Positions 4,911 to 15,930 of a stretch of 64,000 nucleotides of DNA are shown here, one piece after another; the first letter of the stretch is position 1; each line of letters opens with the position of its first letter. This DNA comes from Minisyncoccota bacterium (GTDB taxonomy: Bacteria > Patescibacteriota > Minisyncoccia > Phycocordibacterales > UBA6065), in contig DASWWW010000004.1 in assembly GCA_036400935.1 (NCBI GenBank), forward strand, positions 7,808 through 71,807. The letters run 5' to 3'. The notes under the pieces are model-generated. The model worked only from the letters and a program-made list of their open reading frames with translations. It made no database searches and was not told the DNA's origin. The translations under genes were made by a program, and so were the position numbers.

Positions 4911-5348
4911 CTAGCCCTGGGGCAAGGCGAGAAATTCGAGGAATTCCTTGCTATCGAGCGCGGCGTTCGGAACCGAGACGCTCAGGGCATACTGAGCGAT
5001 CCGCCATTCGCCGCCCGGGCACTTCACCAAAGTTCCCGATCCGCGCATGGGGCCGTAATCCTCATGGTTGAGCGTCTCGTGAAAAAAGGCGACGCCGGGG
5101 TGATCTCCGACCTTTTTGATCTTGAGATCGATGGAACTCATACGCCATCCATTCGACTTTGCGAGAGTATCGGCGAGAGCGCCAATCGACCAATACTCGG
5201 TGTCGTCCGTGCCGACGAAAATCCCATCAGAAGTGAATGATTCCAAGAGGAGCGGTACATCCTTGCTCGCGGCCGCCTGCAGGTGGCCGCGAAGCGGACG
5301 AAGGATGCCATCATGCTCGGATAAGTCAAAACCGGCAATATCGTGCAT
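4911..5348 (-). CDS. SnoaL/NTF2-like (DUF4440-type) protein
   Basis: 145 aa, small alpha+beta cone-type composition, high GC. Function unknown. Confidence 0.45.
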   Translation of the reverse strand: MHDIAGFDLSEHDGILRPLRGHLQAAASKDVPLLLESFTSDGIFVGTDDTEYWSIGALADTLAKSNGWRMSSIDLKIKKVGDHPGVAFFHETLNHEDYGPMRGSGTLVKCPGGEWRIAQYALSVSVPNAALDSKEFLEFLALPQG

Positions 5349-5579
5349 AAGAACTAGAAGTTTGAGGATTTCTCCGTGGCGATATGCCGGTGGAGACCTA
5401 AGCTCAAGCTACTCCAACGCGAGGGAAAGTCAATTAGGCGCGGGTATCAACCTATCCGTACTTTCCTGCTGGAAAGTCGGACGGTCGCCCGTCAGCCTCG
5501 TTGCCCTTAGTGAAATAGGGGCTGACAAGCACTCCCCGTTCGATGAATTATCGTACGCCTGTTTCTCTTATCAGACATG

Positions 5580-6143
5580 TCACTTAGCCTTAATCACCAT
5601 TTCCATCTCTGGGATTGTTGCTCCGCTTTTCATTCTCCATTTTTCGTCAGACCATCTCTTGCCAGTGTCCACGAAACCAAGCTTCTTATAGAAATCGAGA
5701 GCTTTCTGATTGTATGTTGCCACCTGTACGATTATGTCTTTATCGGGTACAGCAAACTTTTTTACCTCTTCCCACAGCTTTGTGCCAATTCCTCTGCCGT
5801 GAAAATCGGGCAAAACATAGATGGTCCTTAACTGGTTATTGTCCTCATTTCTAATCATGGTTGCCACGCCAACAACCAAATCACCTGACTTCGCCACAAC
5901 CCTCCTTTGATTTTCTGGAGTATTCGCAATTCGCTCCTGCTGGCTTTTAATCTTTTCCTCGGTGAATGCGTCTTTGTATGTTTCCTCAACATCCTCAGCC
6001 GTAATGCCTATTCCTTCATTTGGATACGTTGCAAGCCATGCTTTGTACAAAACATTGGTAATACCCTCAGCGTCTTGAGGTACCGCATCCCTTACTTCAA
6101 TTTTCGGTTCTTTTTCGGCTAGGCTTTCCATGGATAAAGCCAT
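5580..6143 (-). CDS. GNAT family N-acetyltransferase (island cargo, low GC)
   Basis: VATMIRNEDNNQLRTIYVLPDFHGRGIGTKLW carries the acetyl-CoA binding R/Q-x-x-G-x-G motif, and ALDFYKKLGF is the C-terminal GNAT motif. The true start may be the second ATG at 6129 (MESLAEK), because an extended -10 overlaps the first ATG. Confidence 0.8.
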   Translation of the reverse strand: MALSMESLAEKEPKIEVRDAVPQDAEGITNVLYKAWLATYPNEGIGITAEDVEETYKDAFTEEKIKSQQERIANTPENQRRVVAKSGDLVVGVATMIRNEDNNQLRTIYVLPDFHGRGIGTKLWEEVKKFAVPDKDIIVQVATYNQKALDFYKKLGFVDTGKRWSDEKWRMKSGATIPEMEMVIKAK

Positions 6144-6160
6144 TTTACCATTTTCGCTGG
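6129..6160 (-). promoter_or_regulatory. extended -10 promoter (TGGTAAAAT) abutting the GNAT start, giving a leaderless or very short leader
   Basis: Minus sense reads cgAAAATGGTAAAATGgctttatccATG. The same 14-mer GAAAATGGTAAAAT recurs upstream of the giant gene. Confidence 0.4.
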
Positions 6161-6398
6161 CGGGACACCAAAATCTCCTTGTTCTTCAAGGTAAATGCTG
6201 ATAGTGATAGCGATAAATCGCTGAATGTGAACCAATTGTACTTAGAATGGAACACCTTGGAAAGTACGGTTTTGAAGTGGAACTCCGTATTTAGACAGTT
6301 TGGTCTTTCAGAAATGGTTGGAGCAAATGCTTAGGATTTAAGGTGCTTTTTAAAACCTTCCTGCTAAAGTCTTTACCTTATCAGTAATAGAACTATAC

Positions 6399-9300
6399 CT
6401 AGCTAGAGATGATTAAAGAGGCTGAGGGGTCGAGTTTTTCGTTTGCACGGGCAATCGCATCAATCTTCTCCTGAGTGTGAGCACCCACAACAATGGTCTT
6501 ATTTTCATTGATTGCCTTTACTGATGCAGAGATTAAAGCACGACCCAGCAAAACCCTGTTCTTATCAGTTGGGTATGTAGACATAATCTCTGTATAAATT
6601 TTTTCTACAACACTTACAGGAACGGAGTCGTCTATGAGAAGCTTAAGGATGAAATAAAACACCAATTTAAGTGCATTATCTGGATTTACCCCATACTCTG
6701 CTGAAAGGGTTAAAGGAAGGTGGAGCTTCTTCAAGTTTTCTACTTGTACTACAGTAATTGCTCCATCTCCGAAAACAGCCTTCTCCAAATCTTGCGTAAC
6801 AAATTGCAAAAACCTGAAACGGTAAGAAGCGAGATATGAAAAATAGTCTAAATATTCCTGAAAGCTTATACGACCCTGTTCATAAAGCACTCGCATTAAA
6901 ACGAAAGATGAGAAATATTGAGGCTTCGGTTTCTTTGTCTCAAGCTCATTCATATGCAAATACAGGAAATCTTCAGTCAGAACAGGGATACCTTCCCTTT
7001 GAGCAAGAATTGTTGCATCAGTCACGCTTGCTGGAATTTCTCGCTCCGAAAACACATCTTCCTTGCTTGCAGAAGAGATAACCCCAATGTTTGCTGTGTT
7101 TAACTCAAGCAATGCAATGGTCTCAGAAATTCTTTTTCCAGCTAAATCTCGTGCTTCTGGATTTAATTCCGAGTAACCAATTTTTCCTTTGGAATAAAAC
7201 ATCTGACCCGCTTGTCCAGGGGTATAGCTTAGTTTGTCCTTAATTTCTAAAAGCAAACTAATGACAGACTGAGGTACTTTAATGTTTGGAAGATGAGGAT
7301 GTAATTTTCTTAAAAGACCTGTTTCAGCAAGAACCCACGCTGAAGTACCGTCCAAATAAAACGGCTCTTTATTGGCGATAATCCTTGTGACAACATCCTT
7401 TTGAGACTTAAACTCCGCCATTGTTCCATCGCTCATCCTTATAAAGCCTCTCTGCTCGTTTTGTATTCTTCCAATCGCATTTGTAAAGCCTCCTTCACTT
7501 ACAACAAGAAGTGCGAACGGTAAGTTCTGGTCACAATAGTTGTTGAAGAACTCCTGACCTCGCTCCTGCTGTGCTTTCATTAGAGCCTCGACATTTTTCA
7601 AATCAATTCCACCATCCTCAGTCTGGGGTACTTCGATGGAAACTGCCGCATCCCACATTCCTTCGAGTGATAGTTTTTGGAAATGATGGTAAGTCTGCCA
7701 CATAATATATTTCTCTATGGGCAGTATGTTCTCTATAGTTTTCTCTTTTTTATCAGAAGCATACGCATTAGCAATTGTTATTTTCTCACCGACTTTCTTT
7801 CCGATGTAATCCTTCTGTTTTTGCGATGGAATAGGCTGTGCATCTAGTGACTCTCCATCACCAACAAAATACCAGCCATCTTCCTCTTTGAACTTCACAA
7901 ATCTTTCTTTCTCAATTTGACCATCTGTCACCAGTTTTATATCAAGGATATTTCCAATGGTATTGAAAACCATAAAAAGCCCAGCATATTCCTGTGGAGA
8001 CGGTCTTCGTGCGAGAGTTGCGCCACGCACAACTGCCTCAAGTGCAGTTTTTGCATCGTTATGCCTCAAATACACTTCTGAAACAAGGAGAGCATTGCTT
8101 TCAAAATCAGAGAGGTAATTTTTGTATGTCTCTACAAGCTCTTTTGCTTTCTTATTATCTTCATCAGTGTTTCTCCTTAGGAGTGCACTAACGGTTTGGC
8201 ACAATAGGATAGCCTTGTTGTTCTCGTCCAATAGAGTTATGTACTCCTTCTTTCCAAGTATCTCTTCTCCAATTTTTATGGTTTCAGGTAAGCGACCAAG
8301 CTTAAAGTTAGCGGTAAAAAGCTCAAGCTTAATCCGAACTATTCTGTCGGCTTCCTTTTCATAGGTGAGTATCTTTTCACCAAAAATTAGGACAAAGTCC
8401 CAAGCTTCTTTTTTCTTTGCTACACCAAGAAATTTTTGGCTATCAACATACCCAATCTTCGACAAATCCATTTTCTTGAGGACATCGAAAGCGCCATCAG
8501 CATTACCTGCTTCATCTTCTAAAAGTAAATAAAGTCTATCTTTGTGTATTTCCCCAGTGTCAGGAAGAGCCTCAATTATTTTCTTTCGCAAATCTGGCTG
8601 GTTAATTGCGATGCAGGTCATAACTGCGAACTGGTGGTCATCTTTTACTTTAGCAACGAAGCCGTCATAGTCCTTCTCTTCCAAATCATCGATTAGTGCA
8701 ACAAAATTATCCAACTTTTTGCTTGCATAAAACTCCTTACCCTTGGTTTCAAGAGTGCCTTGGTCGAGGAATTGGAGAAACATTCTCTTTGCAAATCCGT
8801 CTGACAGAGGTCTTTCTGCTTTATCTAAGTAAGTAAGCAGTTTTTCAAATCCTGCTTTTGGTAGACCTGCAAACGCAAGAAGGTCAGTCAATATACCATC
8901 AATGACATTATCAAAATGGCAAGAAAGGATTAGTTCAAATGTGTCTTTAACTATCGAGGCAAAATCGTCCAAGCGCTCACTCTGAACAAGAAGCATCGCC
9001 TGTTTGTAATTCAAGTAGACCTGATTGCGAACACCAATGTTACCTGAAGCTTTGAACTTATCGTTTGTGGCTTTTATTTCCTTAAGTATTTCTTCAGTTT
9101 TACTCTTTCTTTTGACCTCATCGGTCTCAGATATGAGATTGTTGATATCCATCGCAATTTTCGCATCATAGTTGGATATTTTTTCAGGATTAAAATACAG
9201 TGCTCTTTCAATAAAAGCTGTTGCGTTTACATCGTCCTCTGATTGCTTCAGGATATTTCCATAAAGTCGATAATAATCAGACTTAATCTTTGCGTCAGCA

Positions 9301-10226
9301 GGAAAAGCATCGGTATCTATTTCGCTTATCGAAACTTTTTCCTTGAGGAAACTCTTTCTTACTAGAATTTCAAGTAAATAAAGCCAGTGAGAAGCGTCGA
9401 TTGCTTTTGCTTCGTCTAGTAATCTCTGATTTTCAGAATAATCACCAGCTATTGCACAAATTTCTGCAAGATAAAGCGGTGCTCGAACATCTTTTGGGTA
9501 TCTTTTATACAAATCCTCATATTTCTTTTTTGCCTCAGGTACTTTCTCAAGACGCTGAAGTGTACGAGCTTCAATTAGCTCAAAATCAAGCAACAACGCT
9601 TCGTCTCCCTGTGAAGAAACAATCTCACGCATAGTATCTAGGGTTTGAGAAACGAAGTTTGCGTGACCTCTGTCTAATTCAGCCTCTAATCCCTTAAGGT
9701 ATTCTCTCGATACTTCAAGTGCTTTTCTCTGGTCAACATCAAATCCTAGAGACACAAGCTGGTCACTATTTAGACCTAAGAGAATTTCCTCAAGCTTTCT
9801 AGGTAAAAGAATACCGAAAGTGATGTCAGGATTTTCGCTTGCTAACTGTGCTCGTGCAGACTCAAGTACGATATCTAGCCCGTTGTTCTTATCGTTAAAG
9901 ACAAAATGGTATTCTTTTATATTTGAAATTTCACTCCAACCACTATTTTTTAGCTTGTTAAAATCATCCACCATCTTTTTGGCGGCTTCCGCACTTTTAT
10001 CAAAAGGGTTCTCTGGTGCATAAATCTGATAGTAAATGCCTTTGCTGGGTATATAGCCATCGTTACCACCATCACCTTTATTTCCGTATGGTCTTACCCT
10101 TTGAAACTCAGGGACAGCTTTTTCCATCACATCAGAAAATAAGCTCTGAAATTCAGAGCCATTCTTCTCGTGCACCTTTTTCCAAAACTGAAGTGACAGA
10201 TACCGCCTGTCCATTTGGCTACTCAT
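6399..10226 (-). CDS. giant 1275-aa protein: N-terminal Mrr-like restriction-endonuclease motif, central TPR-like helical repeats, C-terminal PIN-like region; candidate defense/toxin
   Basis: N-terminus FQSLFSDVMEKAVPEFQRVRPYGNKGDGGNDGYIPSKGIYYQIYAP resembles Mrr_cat (GDGGIDG...QxK, here QIY). The middle is all-helical TPR-like (YEDLYKRYPKDVRAPLYLAEICAIAGDYSENQRLLDEAKAID...). The C-terminus has PIN-like PFYLDGTSAWVLAETG ... IPVLTEDFLYLH. There is no Walker A. GC is low, the sequence being rich in AAA/GAA codons. Confidence 0.8.
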   Translation of the reverse strand: MSSQMDRRYLSLQFWKKVHEKNGSEFQSLFSDVMEKAVPEFQRVRPYGNKGDGGNDGYIPSKGIYYQIYAPENPFDKSAEAAKKMVDDFNKLKNSGWSEISNIKEYHFVFNDKNNGLDIVLESARAQLASENPDITFGILLPRKLEEILLGLNSDQLVSLGFDVDQRKALEVSREYLKGLEAELDRGHANFVSQTLDTMREIVSSQGDEALLLDFELIEARTLQRLEKVPEAKKKYEDLYKRYPKDVRAPLYLAEICAIAGDYSENQRLLDEAKAIDASHWLYLLEILVRKSFLKEKVSISEIDTDAFPADAKIKSDYYRLYGNILKQSEDDVNATAFIERALYFNPEKISNYDAKIAMDINNLISETDEVKRKSKTEEILKEIKATNDKFKASGNIGVRNQVYLNYKQAMLLVQSERLDDFASIVKDTFELILSCHFDNVIDGILTDLLAFAGLPKAGFEKLLTYLDKAERPLSDGFAKRMFLQFLDQGTLETKGKEFYASKKLDNFVALIDDLEEKDYDGFVAKVKDDHQFAVMTCIAINQPDLRKKIIEALPDTGEIHKDRLYLLLEDEAGNADGAFDVLKKMDLSKIGYVDSQKFLGVAKKKEAWDFVLIFGEKILTYEKEADRIVRIKLELFTANFKLGRLPETIKIGEEILGKKEYITLLDENNKAILLCQTVSALLRRNTDEDNKKAKELVETYKNYLSDFESNALLVSEVYLRHNDAKTALEAVVRGATLARRPSPQEYAGLFMVFNTIGNILDIKLVTDGQIEKERFVKFKEEDGWYFVGDGESLDAQPIPSQKQKDYIGKKVGEKITIANAYASDKKEKTIENILPIEKYIMWQTYHHFQKLSLEGMWDAAVSIEVPQTEDGGIDLKNVEALMKAQQERGQEFFNNYCDQNLPFALLVVSEGGFTNAIGRIQNEQRGFIRMSDGTMAEFKSQKDVVTRIIANKEPFYLDGTSAWVLAETGLLRKLHPHLPNIKVPQSVISLLLEIKDKLSYTPGQAGQMFYSKGKIGYSELNPEARDLAGKRISETIALLELNTANIGVISSASKEDVFSEREIPASVTDATILAQREGIPVLTEDFLYLHMNELETKKPKPQYFSSFVLMRVLYEQGRISFQEYLDYFSYLASYRFRFLQFVTQDLEKAVFGDGAITVVQVENLKKLHLPLTLSAEYGVNPDNALKLVFYFILKLLIDDSVPVSVVEKIYTEIMSTYPTDKNRVLLGRALISASVKAINENKTIVVGAHTQEKIDAIARANEKLDPSASLIISS

Positions 10227-10230
10227 AGGG

Positions 10231-10246
10231 CAATTTTACCATTTTC
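10231..10246 (-). promoter_or_regulatory. extended -10 promoter (TGGTAAAAT) 6 nt upstream of the giant gene's ATG, giving a leaderless mRNA
   Basis: Minus sense reads ctGAAAATGGTAAAATtgccctATGagt. A start site ~7 nt after the -10 would be the A of ATG. Confidence 0.4.
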
Positions 10247-10314
10247 AGACCACTTTTGATATAATGTGTCTACAAGCACCTCTTCTGTGTAGGCAACACA
10301 GAAACCTCTTCAAA

Positions 10315-10722
10315 ATGCCTAAAACTGCCCTCAGGAAGCCTTACAAGGCTACTCCTGACACAATCAAGATAATTCTCGATGCAATCGCTGAGGGACTTAC
10401 TCAGCGTGATGCCTCAGTCCTTGCTGGAATAAGCGAGGACACCCTTTCACTTTGGAAGCGTCAGAATTCAGAGTTTTCAGAACAAATTAGACAAAAAGAG
10501 ATTGAGTGCAAAAGGAAACATATCAGGAATATTGAAAAGGCTTCAGAGAAAAGCTGGCAAGCTTCAGCGTGGTGGCTAGAACGAAAATACAAGGACGAAT
10601 TCGCCCTCAAAACTACTGGAAATGAAATAAGTGATGAATTGAGAGAGTCTATGCAAAGGGGCAAAGAAATGTTTGATGAAATTTTTGCAAGGAAGCTCGC
10701 AGGAGCGAAGAAAAAGGCTTAA
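10315..10722 (+). CDS. HTH DNA-binding protein, phage terminase small-subunit-like
   Basis: Start at MPKTALRK (10315). ILDAIAEGLTQRDASVLAGISEDTLSLWKRQNSEFSEQIRQ ... ASAWWLERKYKDEF matches the TerS/HTH_23-type family common on mobile elements. TATAAT at 10262-10267. It is divergent from the giant gene. Confidence 0.6.
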   Translation: MPKTALRKPYKATPDTIKIILDAIAEGLTQRDASVLAGISEDTLSLWKRQNSEFSEQIRQKEIECKRKHIRNIEKASEKSWQASAWWLERKYKDEFALKTTGNEISDELRESMQRGKEMFDEIFARKLAGAKKKA

Positions 10723-10751
10723 TCAGAAGTCGTTTTTGTAGTATAATTTGC

Positions 10752-10871
10752 CTGTTCAACTATAACGGAAGTGACCAGTCAAACAGGTCGCTCTCTTTCT
10801 CCAATCGTAGGCAGAAAGGGGCAGTCCGAGTTCTATGATTGGAGTCCTTCGGGGTTCCGTTATAGTTGAAC
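10752..10871. repeat. 120-bp element bounded by 18-bp perfect inverted repeats (tgttcaactataacggaa / ttccgttatagttgaaca) with nested inner inverted repeats
   Basis: Left arm 10752-10769, right arm 10854-10871. An inner inverted repeat gcagaaaggggcag / ctgtccctttctgc is present. A third direct half-copy tgttcaactat lies at 10938-10948, touching the ATG of the peptide ORF. Confidence 0.7.
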
Positions 10872-10947
10872 ACCTCGGCTGTCCCTTTCTGCATCAAATT
10901 AATACGCTTTAGGGGTAATCCAGCCCAAGGTATAGAAGTGTTCAACT

Positions 10948-11148
10948 ATGCCTGAAACAAAAGATGCGCTTAAATTTCTTGCGCTTTTCGGATTACTTTA
11001 TGTAATCACAAAACATACGCCAATAAATGGTTGGCTTTTGTCATTATTCAATGACTCAATAACAGTGTTAGTGATAATTATTTTTGGTTCACTAGTGCTG
11101 ACATTTGGCTTTGAAGTAATAAGACAGTTCTTCAAGTTTTTTAACTGA
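10948..11148 (+). CDS. small two-TM hydrophobic peptide (66 aa)
   Basis: MPETKDALKFLALFGLLYVITKH...VLVIIIFGSLVLTFGF. Its ATG overlaps the third copy of the repeat half-site. Confidence 0.35.
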   Translation: MPETKDALKFLALFGLLYVITKHTPINGWLLSLFNDSITVLVIIIFGSLVLTFGFEVIRQFFKFFN

Positions 11149-11292
11149 CTTTTCAAGTCAAAATGACCCGTGATATAATTCACCTACAATCGAATAAATC
11201 ACTATTGTTAGCCACACCTAGTTTAAGGTCTCAGCTGTACACTTTTGGCGAAAGAGAAAGCCAATTGACTCGGCAAGATTACACGAATTGGG

Positions 11293-11355
11293 AACGCGAA
11301 ACGGTGGACTCTAAAAGCACAGGAATGTGCTGTCCATTAGTTTCGCGTTTTCTTT
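11293..11355 (+). terminator. nested hairpin plus T-run (terminator or leader structure) upstream of the recombinase operon
   Basis: Outer stem aacgcgaaac / gtttcgcgtt, inner stem agcaca-ggaa-tgtgct, followed by ttcttttggg. Confidence 0.5.
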
Positions 11356-11391
11356 TGGGTAGCCCTCCTCTGCATCGATTGGAGACCATCG

Positions 11392-11574
11392 ATGATTTCT
11401 CTAGAGGACTACAAAAAGAAGCTCGGAGACAAAGCAAAGCTCAAGTCCGATGCCGAAATACTCAAGATAATGAAACTGCAAGAGAAACTTGCGGATGCGT
11501 TTTTCGATATGTGGGTCGAAAAAGTAAATAATAAGAAACTTCCGACTAAGAAAAAATATGAGCGTGAAATTTAA
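11392..11574 (+). CDS. small Lys-rich helical protein (60 aa), possible recombinase accessory or directionality factor
   Basis: MISLEDYKKKLGDKAKLKSDAEILKIMKLQEKLADAFFDMWVEKV. Overlaps the recombinase start by 17 nt. No homology recognised. Confidence 0.3.
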   Translation: MISLEDYKKKLGDKAKLKSDAEILKIMKLQEKLADAFFDMWVEKVNNKKLPTKKKYEREI

Positions 11575-13270
11575 AAACTGTGTAATAGATTGCCGTATCA
11601 GCTCCACCAAGCAAGCTTCGGGTGGAGGTCTTGATGACCAGCAGGCTGTCTGTACAAATCACGCTAGAAATTATGAGTGGAATGTCATTAAGATTTTCAG
11701 CAAGGTCTATTCAGGTCGAAGTGAAGAAAGGGCTGACTTTGAAGAAATTCTTGAATTTATAAAGGAAAAACAAGGCTCAGACACTCCTATCCATTTTTAT
11801 CTTGTTAAGAGCATTGACCGAATAACTCGTGACGGAGCTGTCACTTTTGAAGAAATGAAAAGTCGCCTAGAGTTTTTGGGCGTTCAACTGGTTGATGCAT
11901 ATGGAATGATACAGCCCGCAAAGAACACCCTTGAGCATCTTGGTTTTGAATACAAATGGAGCAAAAAATCGCCAACTGCTACTGCACAGCTTGTAGAGGC
12001 TCAGAGAGCAAAGGATGAAGTTACAGATATCCTTACTCGAATGGTTGGTGCGGAAATTAGGCTTGTTCAGGAGGGTTACAAAGTTCGTCCACCACACGAC
12101 GGATTTGTAAACGAAGTTATTTATGTAAACGGTCAGAAAAAGACAATCGAGTCACCAGACCCCAAGCGAGCAGATTTCTTTAGACAGATGTTCGAGCTTA
12201 GAGCGTCAGGAAGCTTTAGTGATGCTGAGGTTGTCGAAAAAATAAATGCTCTTGGTTATCTCAGTAAGCCTAGAAGTAGATGGGTGTATAGCAAGGACGG
12301 CAAGAGGAGGAAAATTGGTGAGGTTGCGGGTAAGCCCCTTACTGTTAAACAGCTCCAAAGATTTATCTGTCGAACTATTTACGCAGGTATCAATATTGAA
12401 AAGTGGACACACGGCAAACCTATAAAGCAACAATATGATGGCTTGGTTTCGATTGAGACTTTCAACCTAGCAAACAAGGGCAAGATTTATATTCAAGAGA
12501 ACGAAGACGGTTCTTATCAGATTTTGCATAACCAGAAAGACCCACGGGCAATAATGAAGAGGAATAAATTTAATCCTCTTTTCCAATTCGATAAATTGGT
12601 TCTGTGTCCTAAAGGTTGCTGTAAACCCGCTTTGTCTAGCCAAAGTACTGGAAAGTTGGGTAATAAATATCCTGCCTATCACTGTAATAGAAATCACTAC
12701 TGGAGAGTTTCGAAGTCAGAATTTGAGAAAGAAGTAATGAAGTTTTTGAATAGTGTTCATTTCGATGAGGAATTTCTTGAGGGGTTTGAACTTATATTGC
12801 TAGATAAATATCGAGAGCGAGAAGCTGAAGTGCTTAAGGTTTCTTCCAAAGTAAGTGAAAACATCGCTGACCTAAAGGCTCAACAGGCAAAAGCCATTTC
12901 AGATTTCAGGGGTACAAAAAGCTCTATCATCCGACACAAGCTTGAAGAAGAAATTGAAGACCTTGAGAAGCGAATTAAGTCAGCAAGAGTTGAGAGACAG
13001 AAAGTCGAGCTTCAGGAGACCGATATTAAGTCGTTCATCAATTATGTGAAATTTCTAATGGAACACCCAGTAGAAATGCTTGCAGATAATAGCAATCCTT
13101 ACCGTCAGAAGGCTCTTTGGGGACTATTCTTTGAGGAAACTCCGACCTATGCCGAGATAGTTAATGGAACACCAAAACTGTCGCCTGTTGTAAGGCTTTC
13201 TTCTAAACTAGAGGGTGATAAAACCCAAATTGTGACCCTACGGGGAATCGAACCCCGATTTAAAGCTTGA
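11558..13270 (+). CDS. large serine recombinase (integrase)
   Basis: N-terminal resolvase catalytic motif VIDCRISSTKQ (Arg-x-Ser-Ser), a recombinase domain, a zinc-ribbon-like CPKGCCKP...YHC, and a C-terminal coiled-coil. 570 aa. Its last 37 nt overlap tRNA-Glu. Confidence 0.85.
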   Translation: MSVKFKNCVIDCRISSTKQASGGGLDDQQAVCTNHARNYEWNVIKIFSKVYSGRSEERADFEEILEFIKEKQGSDTPIHFYLVKSIDRITRDGAVTFEEMKSRLEFLGVQLVDAYGMIQPAKNTLEHLGFEYKWSKKSPTATAQLVEAQRAKDEVTDILTRMVGAEIRLVQEGYKVRPPHDGFVNEVIYVNGQKKTIESPDPKRADFFRQMFELRASGSFSDAEVVEKINALGYLSKPRSRWVYSKDGKRRKIGEVAGKPLTVKQLQRFICRTIYAGINIEKWTHGKPIKQQYDGLVSIETFNLANKGKIYIQENEDGSYQILHNQKDPRAIMKRNKFNPLFQFDKLVLCPKGCCKPALSSQSTGKLGNKYPAYHCNRNHYWRVSKSEFEKEVMKFLNSVHFDEEFLEGFELILLDKYREREAEVLKVSSKVSENIADLKAQQAKAISDFRGTKSSIIRHKLEEEIEDLEKRIKSARVERQKVELQETDIKSFINYVKFLMEHPVEMLADNSNPYRQKALWGLFFEETPTYAEIVNGTPKLSPVVRLSSKLEGDKTQIVTLRGIEPRFKA

Positions 13271-13304
13271 GAAGCTTCCGTCCTAACCATTAGACGATAG
13301 GGCC
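13233..13304 (-). tRNA. tRNA-Glu (anticodon CUC)
   Basis: Hand-folded minus sense: acceptor GGCCCTA/TAGGGTC (one G-U pair), D-arm GTCT-AATGGTTA-GGAC, anticodon stem GAAGC/GCTTT with loop TTCTCAA, T-arm CGGGG-TTCGATT-CCCCG, discriminator A. CCA is not encoded. Confidence 0.8.
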
Positions 13305-13400
13305 TTGCGGCTGCGTGCGCTTTTGAGGCGACAAGAGATAAATTACACTAAAAAGCGACGATTGGCAATTTCAAAGCGCCCTGCGTGTTATACTTTCGCC

Positions 13401-14621
13401 ATGAGAAAGACCGTCGGTATCCTCCTTTTCGTACTGCTCCTCCCTGCCTTTATATCGAATGTCGGGATCGGATCAGGAAGCCTCGGGCTCACGCCGGAGC
13501 ATGGCGAGCCGAAGATTTTCGGCCGAATCGCCGAGTCCCGATCAAGCGGGCTCTTTTCGCACGCCATGCTTACAGGCTGGTGCGGCGGCCTCGCCAATCA
13601 GTACGTACAGGCGTTTCAGCTAAAAGCGTTCGGGGATGGAGCCTGTACGGACTATACAACGTACAATTCCCAATCTGGCCTGCAGGCCGCCATATTTTCG
13701 GTTATCATCGCCGCGCACGCTTCGGAATGGCTTCTGCGCCTCATTACCGCGGCTTTTCTTGCCCTAGCGCTTGTCCTTTTCTGCCTTTGGCTTTATGACG
13801 AGTTCGGCTCAACGGTCGCATTCGTCACGGCATTCGGCGTCCTGGCGCTTCGCGGCCTCGTACTTGTCGGCGACAATATCGCGCACGTATTCGGAATCTA
13901 TTTCCTTATCCTTGCCTGCACGTGCTTTGCCTACGAAAAGAAATCCGCGCACATAGGCTCGATCGTATGCTGCCTCATGCTCTTCAAATATCCGCTGACA
14001 GGCTTCGAATACGTTACGGCAGCGTGGATGATGGCTTTCGCCCCGCTCGCCTTTTATGCAGTGCGGGACAAGTTCGAGGCAAAGCAATTCCGGCAGCATG
14101 CCCGCAAGATCGGATCGGCAATTGCCGTCGCGACCTTTGTCGCAATAGCGATTCTCACGGTCCAAATCAGCGTCGTGTCATCGCCCAAAGAGGCCGTCAG
14201 CCACCTGACCGAACGCCTGCAGGCACGCACCCAGTTCCCGACCGAGGGAAACCGCTCCGTCTATTACGAATCCATGAAGATAAGCACTCCCGCCCTTTTA
14301 AAGCAGTATCTCAGCTTTGACGCTATCCGAGTTTCAAACATACGCATATCGTTCGGGATGCTTACGATTTTCTTTGTCCTCATTACTGCCGGCGCTTGCC
14401 TCGTCTACAGAAAAAATCGCGATCGAAAGCTCGTCTCCCTCGCCGTCATGCTCTGGGCGAGCGTTTTGGTGCCGCTCACATGGCCCCTCATGTTCAAGGG
14501 CCATGCCGCCTTCCACACCTTCATCGATCCGGTGATTTGGCACATGCCATTTACGATACTTGGTATCGCCCTTACCGCAGCGACCGTACGAGCGGCACTT
14601 AAATTGCGCGCAAACCCATGA
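13401..14621 (+). CDS. polytopic membrane protein, possibly a GT-C-like glycosyltransferase partner of the downstream GT2
   Basis: Start at MRKTVGILLFVLLL, with ~10 predicted TM helices. Its stop overlaps the start of the next gene. Confidence 0.55.
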   Translation: MRKTVGILLFVLLLPAFISNVGIGSGSLGLTPEHGEPKIFGRIAESRSSGLFSHAMLTGWCGGLANQYVQAFQLKAFGDGACTDYTTYNSQSGLQAAIFSVIIAAHASEWLLRLITAAFLALALVLFCLWLYDEFGSTVAFVTAFGVLALRGLVLVGDNIAHVFGIYFLILACTCFAYEKKSAHIGSIVCCLMLFKYPLTGFEYVTAAWMMAFAPLAFYAVRDKFEAKQFRQHARKIGSAIAVATFVAIAILTVQISVVSSPKEAVSHLTERLQARTQFPTEGNRSVYYESMKISTPALLKQYLSFDAIRVSNIRISFGMLTIFFVLITAGACLVYRKNRDRKLVSLAVMLWASVLVPLTWPLMFKGHAAFHTFIDPVIWHMPFTILGIALTAATVRAALKLRANP

Positions 14622-15340
14622 AGCAGATCTTTATAGGCATATGCGCCCACAATGAGGAGCAAGACCTTGCGCGTACGATTGATTCGATCAGCTCGGCCAT
14701 GCGCGCCACGTCCTACCCGTTCAAGATTCTCGTCCATGATGATGGTTCCACCGACAGCACTCGGGCTATCGCGACGGAAAAAGCCGATTACGTAAGCTTT
14801 ACCGACGACCGCCGCGGGCTCGCCGAGGCGTTCAGGCTAAACCTCGCCGCCTGCCTCGCCCGCGGCGCCGATATATTCGTCCATATCGACGCGGACGGGC
14901 AATATCCGGCAGACAAAATACCGGAGCTCATCAAGGAGGTGGAAAACGGCGCCGATCTCGCCATAGGTAGCAGATTCCTGATAAAGAAAGGCTATAGGAA
15001 TTCATGGCACAAGGCTCTCGGCAATACGCTCTTCTCAAGAGGCTACGCCCTCTTCCTCGGTACCCCTATCACCGACCTCACATCCGGCTTTCGTGCCATG
15101 ACCAAGGAATTCGCCCAAGCAATAACCATCCGCAGCAAATTTACGTACACTTATGACCAGTACATTCAGGCCATTTTAGGCAAATACAAAATAAAGGAGA
15201 TTCCCATCCAAGGATCCCCTACGCGCAAATCGCGCCTCATGAAAAACGGCTGGCATTATATGAGGAGGGCCGCCGCCGATATTTATGCCTACTATCCCGA
15301 GTGGAAAAAGGCGGCGGCCTCCCAAAAGTACCAACCATGA
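14618..15340 (+). CDS. glycosyltransferase family 2 (dolichol-phosphate-sugar synthase-like)
   Basis: ICAHNEEQDL, ILVHDDGSTDST and FVHIDADGQYP are GT2 DPM1-like motifs. Confidence 0.8.
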   Translation: MKQIFIGICAHNEEQDLARTIDSISSAMRATSYPFKILVHDDGSTDSTRAIATEKADYVSFTDDRRGLAEAFRLNLAACLARGADIFVHIDADGQYPADKIPELIKEVENGADLAIGSRFLIKKGYRNSWHKALGNTLFSRGYALFLGTPITDLTSGFRAMTKEFAQAITIRSKFTYTYDQYIQAILGKYKIKEIPIQGSPTRKSRLMKNGWHYMRRAAADIYAYYPEWKKAAASQKYQP

Positions 15341-15930
15341 CCTGCTATACTGACCACATGAAATCGAGCCTGACAAACATCCTGAAGCTGACCTATTCCT
15401 TCTCGGAAATAAATCGCGACATGTACTATCCCGATCGCGAGAGGCCGGAAAACGACGCCGAGCACGCCTTTCAGCTCTCGACCCTGGCCTGGCATATCAT
15501 CGAGAAGGACAAGCTCGACCTGGACGTCGCGCGCGTCTTGAAGCTCTGCCTCGCCCACGACCTCGTCGAGATCTATGCCGGCGACGTGCCGCTGTGGGCA
15601 AAAGACGGCCACGATGAAAAGGAAGCGCGAGAAAAGCTTGCCCTCAACCGCCTGACCGAAGAGCTCTCAAGCACGAGCGACATGACCGACGCGATCCGCG
15701 AATACAAAAAGAGAGAAACCAAGGAAGCCATATTCGTCTACGGGTTGGACAAGCTCCTGCCCTTCTTAAACCAGCTCCACATCGGCGGCAAGGTATGGAA
15801 ATCGAACAACGTCAGCATGGCGCGTGCCCTCGAGGTCCTCGAGCGCCAATCGAAAATATCGAATCACCTCTCAAAATACTTCGTCGAGGCAATCGACTAT
15901 ATGAAAAGGCACGAGAGCGAGCTTTTCTAG
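15336..15930 (+). CDS. HD-domain phosphohydrolase (YfbR-like 5'-deoxynucleotidase)
   Basis: ENDAEHAFQLSTLAWH ... CLAHDLVEIYAGD is the H...HD...D metal-binding signature. ATGA overlap with the upstream stop. Confidence 0.7.

Follow-up and report, generated by a model that had tools for sequence, protein, structure and literature searches.

The window analysed here is a 64,000-nucleotide stretch of a Minisyncoccota genome (contig DASWWW010000004.1 of GenBank assembly GCA_036400935.1), and our subject is a 7.0-kb integrative element that it carries at the 3' end of a tRNA-Glu gene. GC content drops from about 0.53-0.57 to about 0.40 near 5.5 kb and is back at about 0.53 at 13.2 kb, where the tRNA lies; the element has a GC content of 0.399, against 0.53-0.56 for the host. 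The low-GC island named in an earlier prediction made from the sequence alone (the original prediction) is thus real, and at its right end, as predicted, there is an intact tRNA-Glu(CTC) gene on the minus strand at 13232-13304 (ARAGORN; Rfam tRNA, 64.5 bits), the attB target of the element and the sole match in an Rfam scan of positions 5000-14000. Running towards it on the plus strand is the open reading frame (ORF) of a large serine recombinase (11558-13270, 570 aa), which was assigned by its Pfam Resolvase domain, a match to phrog_95, the fold of a homologue and a frame check. The ORF enters the 3' part of the tRNA gene, and this overlap, noticed from the start, is real; its length is 39 nt and not the 37 nt first given.

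The overlap had been read as a plain run-on of the recombinase into the tRNA. It is instead the visible half of a split gene, with attP within the ORF and the last 35 codons at the left end of the element. Residues 1-559 of the integrated ORF are encoded by the element, while the last 11 codons (TLRGIEPRFKA) and the stop are tRNA-Glu antisense sequence, the TGA stop (13268-13270) being the complement of U35-C36-A37 in the tRNA anticodon loop. The detached 3' end lies on the plus strand at 6227-6334, where it continues the recombinase frame from V559 for 35 codons (VNQLYLEWNTLESTVLKWNSVFRQFGLSEMVGANA) followed by a TAG stop; the same segment is the P' arm of attP. Its translation is matched by a hidden Markov model (HMM) of the tail (E=9.5e-13) and corresponds to the C-terminus of intact homologues such as P0017 (our L and P numbers denote related loci and proteins). 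The reconstructed recombinase of the excised state, with 11558-13231 joined to 6227-6331, is 593 aa long, and 559 of these 593 codons, including all recognised domains, stay in one ORF after integration. In other words, the recombinase ORF itself contains attP, some 35 codons ahead of the stop, and integration re-tails the gene rather than destroying it, the catalytic and DNA-binding domains being kept in the 570-aa ORF.

The class of the enzyme, a large serine recombinase (serine integrase) already in the original prediction, is supported by both sequence comparison and modelled structure. The catalytic domain is recognised by Pfam (PF00239 Resolvase, E=2.1e-11, residues 12-115), the protein matches the phrog_95 integrase family (E=1.7e-29), and a profile search retrieved the catalytic domain of the TP901-1 integrase (E=3.4e-10). 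R13 and S15 are invariant in 40 homologues, as are C350, C354 and C376 in the homologue alignment. The window recombinase gave no significant Pfam match for the recombinase domain or the zinc ribbon, nor any sequence-level match beyond the catalytic domain; its homologues carry precomputed PF07508 and PF13408 matches. An AlphaFold2 (AF2) model of the full-length homologue P0017 (mean pLDDT 83) has, in order, a catalytic domain, an alpha-E helix, a recombinase domain (184-330), a zinc ribbon (~345-380), a long coiled coil (399-476), C-terminal helices, a linker of low confidence where the attP core is translated, and a confidently modelled tail helix. The best Foldseek matches were full-length serine integrase complexes (E=1.7e-14 over ~580 columns), followed by the phiC31, Bxb1 and A118 enzymes. 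The predicted features are thereby accounted for, the R13/S15 catalytic motif by Pfam and alignment and the zinc ribbon and coiled coil by the homologue's AF2 model.

We located the ends of the element by comparison with its relatives. In blastn, similarity to the related elements L002 and L004 begins exactly at window position 6227; because this is also where the attL core and the detached recombinase tail lie, the recombination unit is 6227-13235, 7.0 kb in length (7,005 bp between cores). The original prediction had drawn the unit from 5560 to 13304, and its left junction has to be moved to 6226-6230. The attL core, TGTGA (6226-6230), recurs unchanged as the attR core (13231-13235), which lies at the tRNA's 3' terminus, as was established by comparing attL and attR in 21 elements. 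The attL sequence is CGCTGAAT-GTGA-ACCAATTG and the attR sequence CCCAAATT-GTGA-CCCTACGG; TGTGA is the only string that they have in common, and across the 21 elements the shared cores measure 3-8 nt. The tRNA end does define attB, as proposed, and the reported lack of long direct repeats holds too: neither a search for a second copy of the tRNA 3' part within 3 mismatches nor a repeat search found one, because the crossover falls in the last nucleotides of the tRNA.

The position of the crossover can be narrowed further. In three elements the first base of the shared codon is A in attL, where it is host-derived, and G in attR, which places the exchange to the right of that base. Across tRNA types, positions 2-3 of the codon block are often palindromic (TA, CG), and positions 3-4 (GA, AG, GG, AC) never are. 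From the first-base differences together with the non-palindromy of positions 3-4 we infer that the crossover dinucleotide is GA, at 6229-6230 and 13234-13235, corresponding to nucleotides 71-72 of the tRNA; on this reading the tRNA would be host-derived except for the discriminator base and the trailer. A crossover dinucleotide had been expected at both junctions, and GA would provide it at 13234-13235, with the left counterpart at 6229-6230 and not at ~5.4-5.6 kb. The reconstructed attP is ...CCCAAATTGTGAACCAATTG... and the reconstructed attB ...CGCTGAATGTGACCCTACGG..., with predicted junction sequences ...GGGTGATAAAACCCAAATTGTGAACCAATTGTACTTAGAATGGAACACC... (attP) and ...GATAGCGATAAATCGCTGAATGTGACCCTACGGGGAATCGAACC... 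(attB).

The same arrangement recurs throughout a family. The recombinase has hundreds of homologues of ~570 aa (the whole family numbers at least 555), and their hosts, where named, are Patescibacteria. Of the best 120 homologues, 95 have as their C-terminus a peptide read from tRNA T-arm antisense sequence (...VTLRGIEPRF...), and 19 have a long tail with the motif V-x4-[LF]xWNT[LFI]ExxVxxW. An antisense tRNA overlaps the end of the ORF by 27-125 nt in 57 of 90 homologous loci, a recurrence that argues against chance. The targets in these 57 loci are tRNA-Glu (CTC or TTC, 41 loci), Trp (8), Arg (4), Lys (2), Val (1) and His (1). The use of a tRNA gene by a serine recombinase, called uncommon in the original prediction, is the rule within this family, extending to seven tRNA species among the homologues examined. 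Upstream of the recombinase gene, and on its strand, the tail HMM has matches in the window as well as in more than 25 further integrated loci, at distances that imply elements of 4.6-11.3 kb. In all 21 elements for which both ends are available, an ORF without interruption results when they are joined at the shared codon, and its in-frame tail of 29-42 aa has the motif LxWNTxExxVxxW. No longer isoform with a long tail was present in the clusters of the closest homologues. No recombinase homologue was present in 50,697 phage and 72,556 plasmid records, and the 2.9 million viral contigs of IMG/VR gave one match.

Circular relatives carry the gene in one piece. One, L152, is a 4,975-bp circle by a 43-nt terminal overlap; two others, L172 and L173 (5,637 bp), come from two different samples and are 100% identical and circularly permuted; in all of them the recombinase gene is intact and ends with the tail. 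The L172 recombinase, P0017, shares 69% identity with the integrated one of L096 (P0016), which lies at tRNA-Glu(TTC). A further contig of 4,268 bp (L174), apparently circular by a 24-nt terminal overlap, combines an intact recombinase with a Pfam Terminase_2 gene and with genes for two tRNAs (Arg-TCT and Ile-GAT). The element thus alternates between a circle with an intact 593-aa gene and a form integrated at the tRNA 3' end.

The detached tail is under purifying selection: when the window is compared with L002 and L004 over 93 nt (31 codons), the ratio of nonsynonymous to synonymous change (pN/pS) is 0.12, and other pairs give 0.25-0.72. A second signal is superimposed on the coding one. The string TGGAACAC is found in the window at 6246-6256, 13163-13173 and 13057-13067, as well as in the reconstructed attP of L008-L166, and a pair of copies flanks the attP core in 20 of 21 elements, L131 having TGGAACTC at both places. 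The copies lie at -67, within the recombinase codons N-G-T-P, and at +21, within the tail codons W-N-T. This suggests a DNA-level binding or accessory site on top of the coding constraint, and the flanking pair might serve attP as accessory sites.

We also compared the insertion site with that of related genomes. The right flank is syntenic with Parcubacteria/Paceibacterota (Mur ligase, penicillin-binding protein, RsmH, MraZ, aminoacyl-tRNA synthetase and GreA), and in most of 80 such relatives the Mur ligase is adjoined by tRNA-Glu(CTC), with no recombinase except for one partial match. A recombinase-free site with this tRNA beside the Mur ligase is available at the level of genus or family, which supports the original prediction. 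In the closest relative, L011, the tRNA 3' end is identical (...GTAGGGTCAC) and is followed by unrelated DNA without an element. Independent assemblies from at least nine sequencing runs are interrupted exactly at attR, with a host contig that starts at 13233 and an element contig that ends at 13261 (L009, L010, L175 and L176), and such breaks imply that another continuation from the tRNA 3' end exists in those samples, the site being empty or differently occupied. The start of the host contig in these broken assemblies is the second base of the attR core. The original proposal, that tRNA-Glu(CTC) is the site of an integrative island and that a large serine recombinase drives it, is supported.

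On the far side of the tRNA, between its 5' end and the Mur ligase (13305-15930), the window has three genes with host-like GC, for a polytopic membrane protein, a GT2 glycosyltransferase and an HD/YfbR-like hydrolase. In L011, unlike the window, the tRNA directly follows the Mur ligase; the absence of the extra genes there indicates that the tRNA has variable DNA on both sides. In L012-L015 the tRNA-Glu near the Mur ligase is inverted relative to the window and L011 and stands 1-3 kb off. The Mur ligase/tRNA-Glu locus has been rearranged repeatedly in Parcubacteria.

All the genes listed for the island by the original prediction are present, as judged by Pfam, PHROG, repeat and codon-bias searches: a GNAT acetyltransferase, a PIN-TPR protein, a terminase small subunit (TerS)-like helix-turn-helix (HTH) protein, inverted repeats, a peptide with two transmembrane segments (2-TM) and a Lys-rich ORF. 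The first of them does not belong to the recombination unit. The GNAT gene (5580-6143, minus strand; Pfam Acetyltransf_10/1/7) is compositionally foreign, with a GC content of 0.436 and tetranucleotide correlations of 0.715 with the element and 0.014 with the host; its membership of the mobile unit is ruled out by its absence from the related elements L002 and L004 and by the start of similarity at 6227. Together with the region upstream (5560-6226) it may be left over from an earlier insertion at the same tRNA; neither a tail nor a tRNA remnant was found at the left edge near 5560. Tandem tail-coding segments on one strand occur in L116 (1155-1235 and 1740-1820) and L021 (9198-9278 and 10098-10178), and probably stem from successive integrations at one tRNA, as remnants of the elements' left ends.

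Directly upstream of the recombinase, with its end overlapping the recombinase start, is p60, a 60-aa Lys-rich protein (11392-11574, plus strand) supported by third-position substitution bias in its frame. A member of the p60 family immediately precedes the recombinase in at least 19 of 27 elements (17 by HMM, L002 and L004 by tblastn), and the recombinase and this upstream small protein are the only widely recurring genes in the 27. Excision by serine integrases requires a separate directionality factor, and p60 is a candidate for such a directionality or accessory factor, as judged by its position and recurrence. Before p60 lies a conserved non-coding leader (11150-11391, plus strand) with a promoter-like site at 11150-11179 (10/12 promoter matches and a TG extension) and a 57-nt hairpin at 11293-11349 (-35.8 kcal/mol, z = -5.4) followed by the U tract UUUUCUUUU. 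The leader has a consensus fold among relatives and belongs to no Rfam family, and its hairpin may attenuate the p60-recombinase operon. A 122-aa ORF at 11163-11531 was rejected as a gene, as positions 11160-11390 are highly conserved without codon periodicity and the other frame, that of p60, has it; gene callers annotate a spurious ORF of 121-124 aa across the leader in related loci.

Further upstream are p66, a 66-aa two-TM peptide (10948-11148, plus strand) recognised by third-position substitution bias against two related elements and 85-91% identical across L001-L007, and three copies of GTTCAACTAT(A/G), the middle one reversed (10753-10956; inverted repeats I9, of 18 nt and 100% complementary, and I10). 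Both L001 and L004 conserve these repeats, of which the third overlaps the start codon of p66; they probably constitute an operator. Pfam and PHROGs searches returned nothing significant for p60, p66 or the other conserved small proteins. Next comes p152, a 152-aa TerS-like HTH protein (10264-10722, plus strand), with a match to the terminase small subunit family phrog_4102 (E=7.4e-22), weak matches to HTH_28 and Sf6_terminase, and a promoter-like site before it at 10236-10265. A related TerS/HTH-like protein is found in 8 of 27 elements; kinship with the Terminase_2 protein of L174 was considered and dismissed, the two being unrelated by BLASTP.

The remainder of the element is filled by its cargo, a 1275-aa protein of the PIN-TPR-GreABC family (6399-10226, minus strand; Pfam PF20698, E=1.3e-9, and TPR_16), the N-terminus of which is LmuA-like (PADLOC LmuA, E=5.7e-7, residues 20-112), making it a putative conflict or defence gene. 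It is 89.6% identical to the cargo of L002 (222-4049), while the recombinases are only 75% identical (74-75% for related elements), and this difference implies recent exchange of cargo between elements. The HTH gene between cargo and recombinase has been replaced between the window and L002, apart from its first ~14 codons. Cargo also varies in kind, from PIN-TPR in the window to a HEAT-repeat protein in one relative and a restriction-modification pair in another. Elements of this family are modular and swap parts with one another. Replication, conjugation, capsid and helper-sensing genes were not recognised among the element proteins in Pfam and PHROG scans, and the candidate routes of transfer are natural transformation and phage packaging through the TerS-like protein.

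The explanation that best covers these observations, and one that we regard as highly likely, is a 7.0-kb Patescibacteria element whose serine recombinase gene is split by its own attP and given a tRNA-derived tail on integration. On this explanation the large serine recombinase inserted the element at the very 3' end of tRNA-Glu(CTC) by a crossover in TGTGA, probably at GA, leaving the tRNA whole and forming no long repeats. The circular form encodes a 593-aa protein in which a disordered linker encoded by the attP core is followed by a conserved amphipathic helix (LEWNTLESTVLKWN...). Integration carries the 35 end codons 7 kb away to attL and fuses the ORF to the antisense strand of the tRNA, the source of TLRGIEPRFKA and the stop. 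Whether the split has a function is a separate matter. That the two isoforms differ in activity, directionality or stability, such that the enzyme matches the state of the element, has in our view an even chance or slightly less. A more specific proposal, which we hold tentatively, is that the split acts as a built-in state sensor: full-length integrase would be made only from the circle, its C-terminal helix tuning synapsis or coiled-coil autoinhibition, and the tRNA-tailed isoform would have altered directionality, stability or dependence on p60.

The main rival to a functional split is that the tail swap is a tolerated by-product, with attP sitting in a dispensable 3' end, the isoforms alike, and directionality set by a separate factor only. 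We consider this quite possible, if somewhat short of even. All the catalytic and DNA-binding domains remain in the 570-aa ORF, the attP core encodes a low-confidence linker, and the tail of the integrated state is dictated by the tRNA sequence and so lies beyond the element's optimisation; a DNA-level constraint at TGGAACAC could moreover account for part of the tail's conservation. A dispensable tail would, however, be expected to decay, whereas the motif LxWNTxExxVxxW is conserved across homologues that are only 41-75% identical to the query, synonymous changes dominate all 93 nt (pN/pS 0.12), well past a half-site of ~25 bp, and the tail is modelled as a confident helix. The same selection on the tail bears on the suggestion that the locus is a fossil, an immobilised remnant whose left-end segment is kept only as a DNA site or by recent descent. 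Exact-protein look-ups recovered no circular or empty-site form of the exact element and it has no recognised replication, conjugation or capsid genes, which would suit a fossil, but every ORF, even the tail that is not expressed, is intact, and this is so in 21 of 21 elements; the disparity between cargo (89.6%) and recombinase (75%) identity implies recent exchange, circular relatives exist, and assemblies break at attR in at least nine runs. We judge a fossil highly improbable.

We think it just as improbable that the mobile unit extends over all 7.7 kb of low-GC DNA (5560-13304), GNAT gene included, with the overlap between recombinase and tRNA incidental. The GC step at ~5.5 kb and the element-like composition of the GNAT gene would favour such a unit, yet relatives have no GNAT gene and start at 6227, positions 6226-6334 hold the attL core together with the in-frame tail, the region near 5560 has neither tail nor tRNA remnant, and the overlap recurs in 57 of 90 loci. 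A last possibility, compatible with the split-recombinase element and in our estimation unlikely, is that the element is a phage satellite whose TerS-like protein redirects helper-phage packaging to the excised form. The phrog_4102 match of p152, the Terminase_2 gene of a circular-looking relative, the small size of the elements (4.6-11.3 kb), their defence-like cargo and circles abundant enough to assemble are in keeping with this. Set against it are the restriction of the p152-family protein to 8 of 27 elements, its lack of BLASTP similarity to the Terminase_2 protein, the failure to find capsid, replication or helper-sensing genes, and the near absence of the family from viral collections, where 2.9 million viral contigs gave a single match and 50,697 phage records gave no match.

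Several points weigh against the split-recombinase element as we have described it. Exact-protein look-ups with the recombinase, SnoaL, GNAT and right-flank proteins retrieved occupied contigs only, and thus neither an empty-site allele of the exact element from the same population nor its circular form. The GA dinucleotide comes from sequence comparison rather than direct observation, and that the isoforms differ or that p60 acts in directionality is something we infer. Conservation of the tail may lie partly at the DNA level, since TGGAACAC is nearly invariant both in the tail and 88 nt upstream, where it is read in a different frame. The GNAT segment, although outside the unit, has an element-like composition. 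Finally, about 14 distant homologues (41-46% identity) are intact with no tRNA nearby, some on contigs of up to 2.17 Mb, which means that attP within the ORF is not universal in the wider family. Intact tails of this distant kind are seen in L133, L142, L155, L161, L162, L167 and L170; in L161 and L170 the gene is followed, ~650 nt downstream, by another tail-like segment.

In this study we have described a conserved family of self-splitting serine integrases in Patescibacteria, for which a limited literature search found no prior description. Self-disrupting recombinase genes, so far described as exclusively archaeal and of the tyrosine type (PMC8371274), are thereby extended to bacteria and to a serine integrase. 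The literature that we searched contains little on mobile elements of Patescibacteria, and the elements reported here, small (4.6-11.3 kb), with circular forms and variable defence-like cargo, are a first defined family of integrative elements for this group. If the state-sensor proposal is true, they would represent a bacterial serine-recombinase counterpart of the archaeal suicidal integrases and a new, protein-encoded control of serine-integrase directionality. Serine integrases are prized for genome engineering; a clade with attB at tRNA ends offers new targets, and a C-terminal tail that changes with integration state may provide a new handle on directionality. There is also a warning for annotation, in that the 570-aa protein and many of its database homologues have C-termini translated from tRNA antisense.

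The window enzyme shares its domain order, short att cores and lack of long repeats with the integrases of phiC31, Bxb1, A118, TP901-1 and PLE. In well-known examples of these phage and integrative and conjugative element (ICE) systems the integrase ORF does not contain attP, and insertion is into protein-coding genes. The window family differs from them further in an extra C-terminal helical region and tail. It is absent from cultured phage and plasmid records, and our limited full-text literature search found no description of a serine integrase with attP inside its own ORF. With Islander-type tRNA islands the element has in common the tRNA 3' end as target, an integrase gene that abuts the tRNA, and a tRNA that stays functional. 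Islander-type islands, which use tyrosine integrases, bring their own version of the tRNA 3' part, and a displaced piece of the tRNA gene remains behind as a direct repeat (PMC4383910). In the window a serine integrase recombines in the last tRNA nucleotides, with 3-8 nt shared in the 21 elements compared and no displaced fragment. The combination of a tRNA site and variable cargo is reminiscent of the tycheposons of Prochlorococcus, small cargo elements at tRNA genes, of which 27 of 937 encode a large serine recombinase, most having tyrosine recombinases and often replication genes (bioRxiv 10.1101/2020.12.28.424599). The window family differs in host phylum, probably in recombinase family, and in that no replication genes were found, and the passages of the preprint drawn on here do not mention a split gene. 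Phage satellites of the PICI/PICMI kind combine an integrase with a gene that redirects packaging (TerS or capsid remodelling), a replication module and induction by a helper; the window element has a TerS-like protein, and no replication or capsid genes were found.

The closest parallels are systems in which integration itself changes an element-encoded protein. In the integration-dependent immunity of mycobacteriophages, as reportedly described by Broussard et al. in 2013, attP is located inside the repressor gene and the integrase is of the tyrosine type. There too, integration alters the C-terminus of a protein encoded by the element and creates a state-dependent isoform; the protein remodelled is the repressor, whereas here it is the recombinase itself. 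The 'suicidal' tyrosine integrases of the SSV type (SSV1, pTN3 and pT26-2) have attP in the integrase ORF, and integration into a tRNA gene partitions the gene, which is intact only in the circle (PMC7253208, PMC8371274); such self-disrupting enzymes, with a Phage_integr_3 domain, have been described as exclusive to archaea (PMC8371274). The window element likewise targets a tRNA and has attP within the integrase ORF, and its gene is whole only in the circular form. Its enzyme, however, is a bacterial serine recombinase with a Resolvase domain and not a tyrosine fold, so that it resembles the SSV type in architecture only and is not a member. The outcome of the split differs as well: integration of an SSV-type element leaves two inactive pseudogenes, while in the window it detaches only 35 codons, for which the antisense strand of the tRNA provides a substitute tail and a stop.

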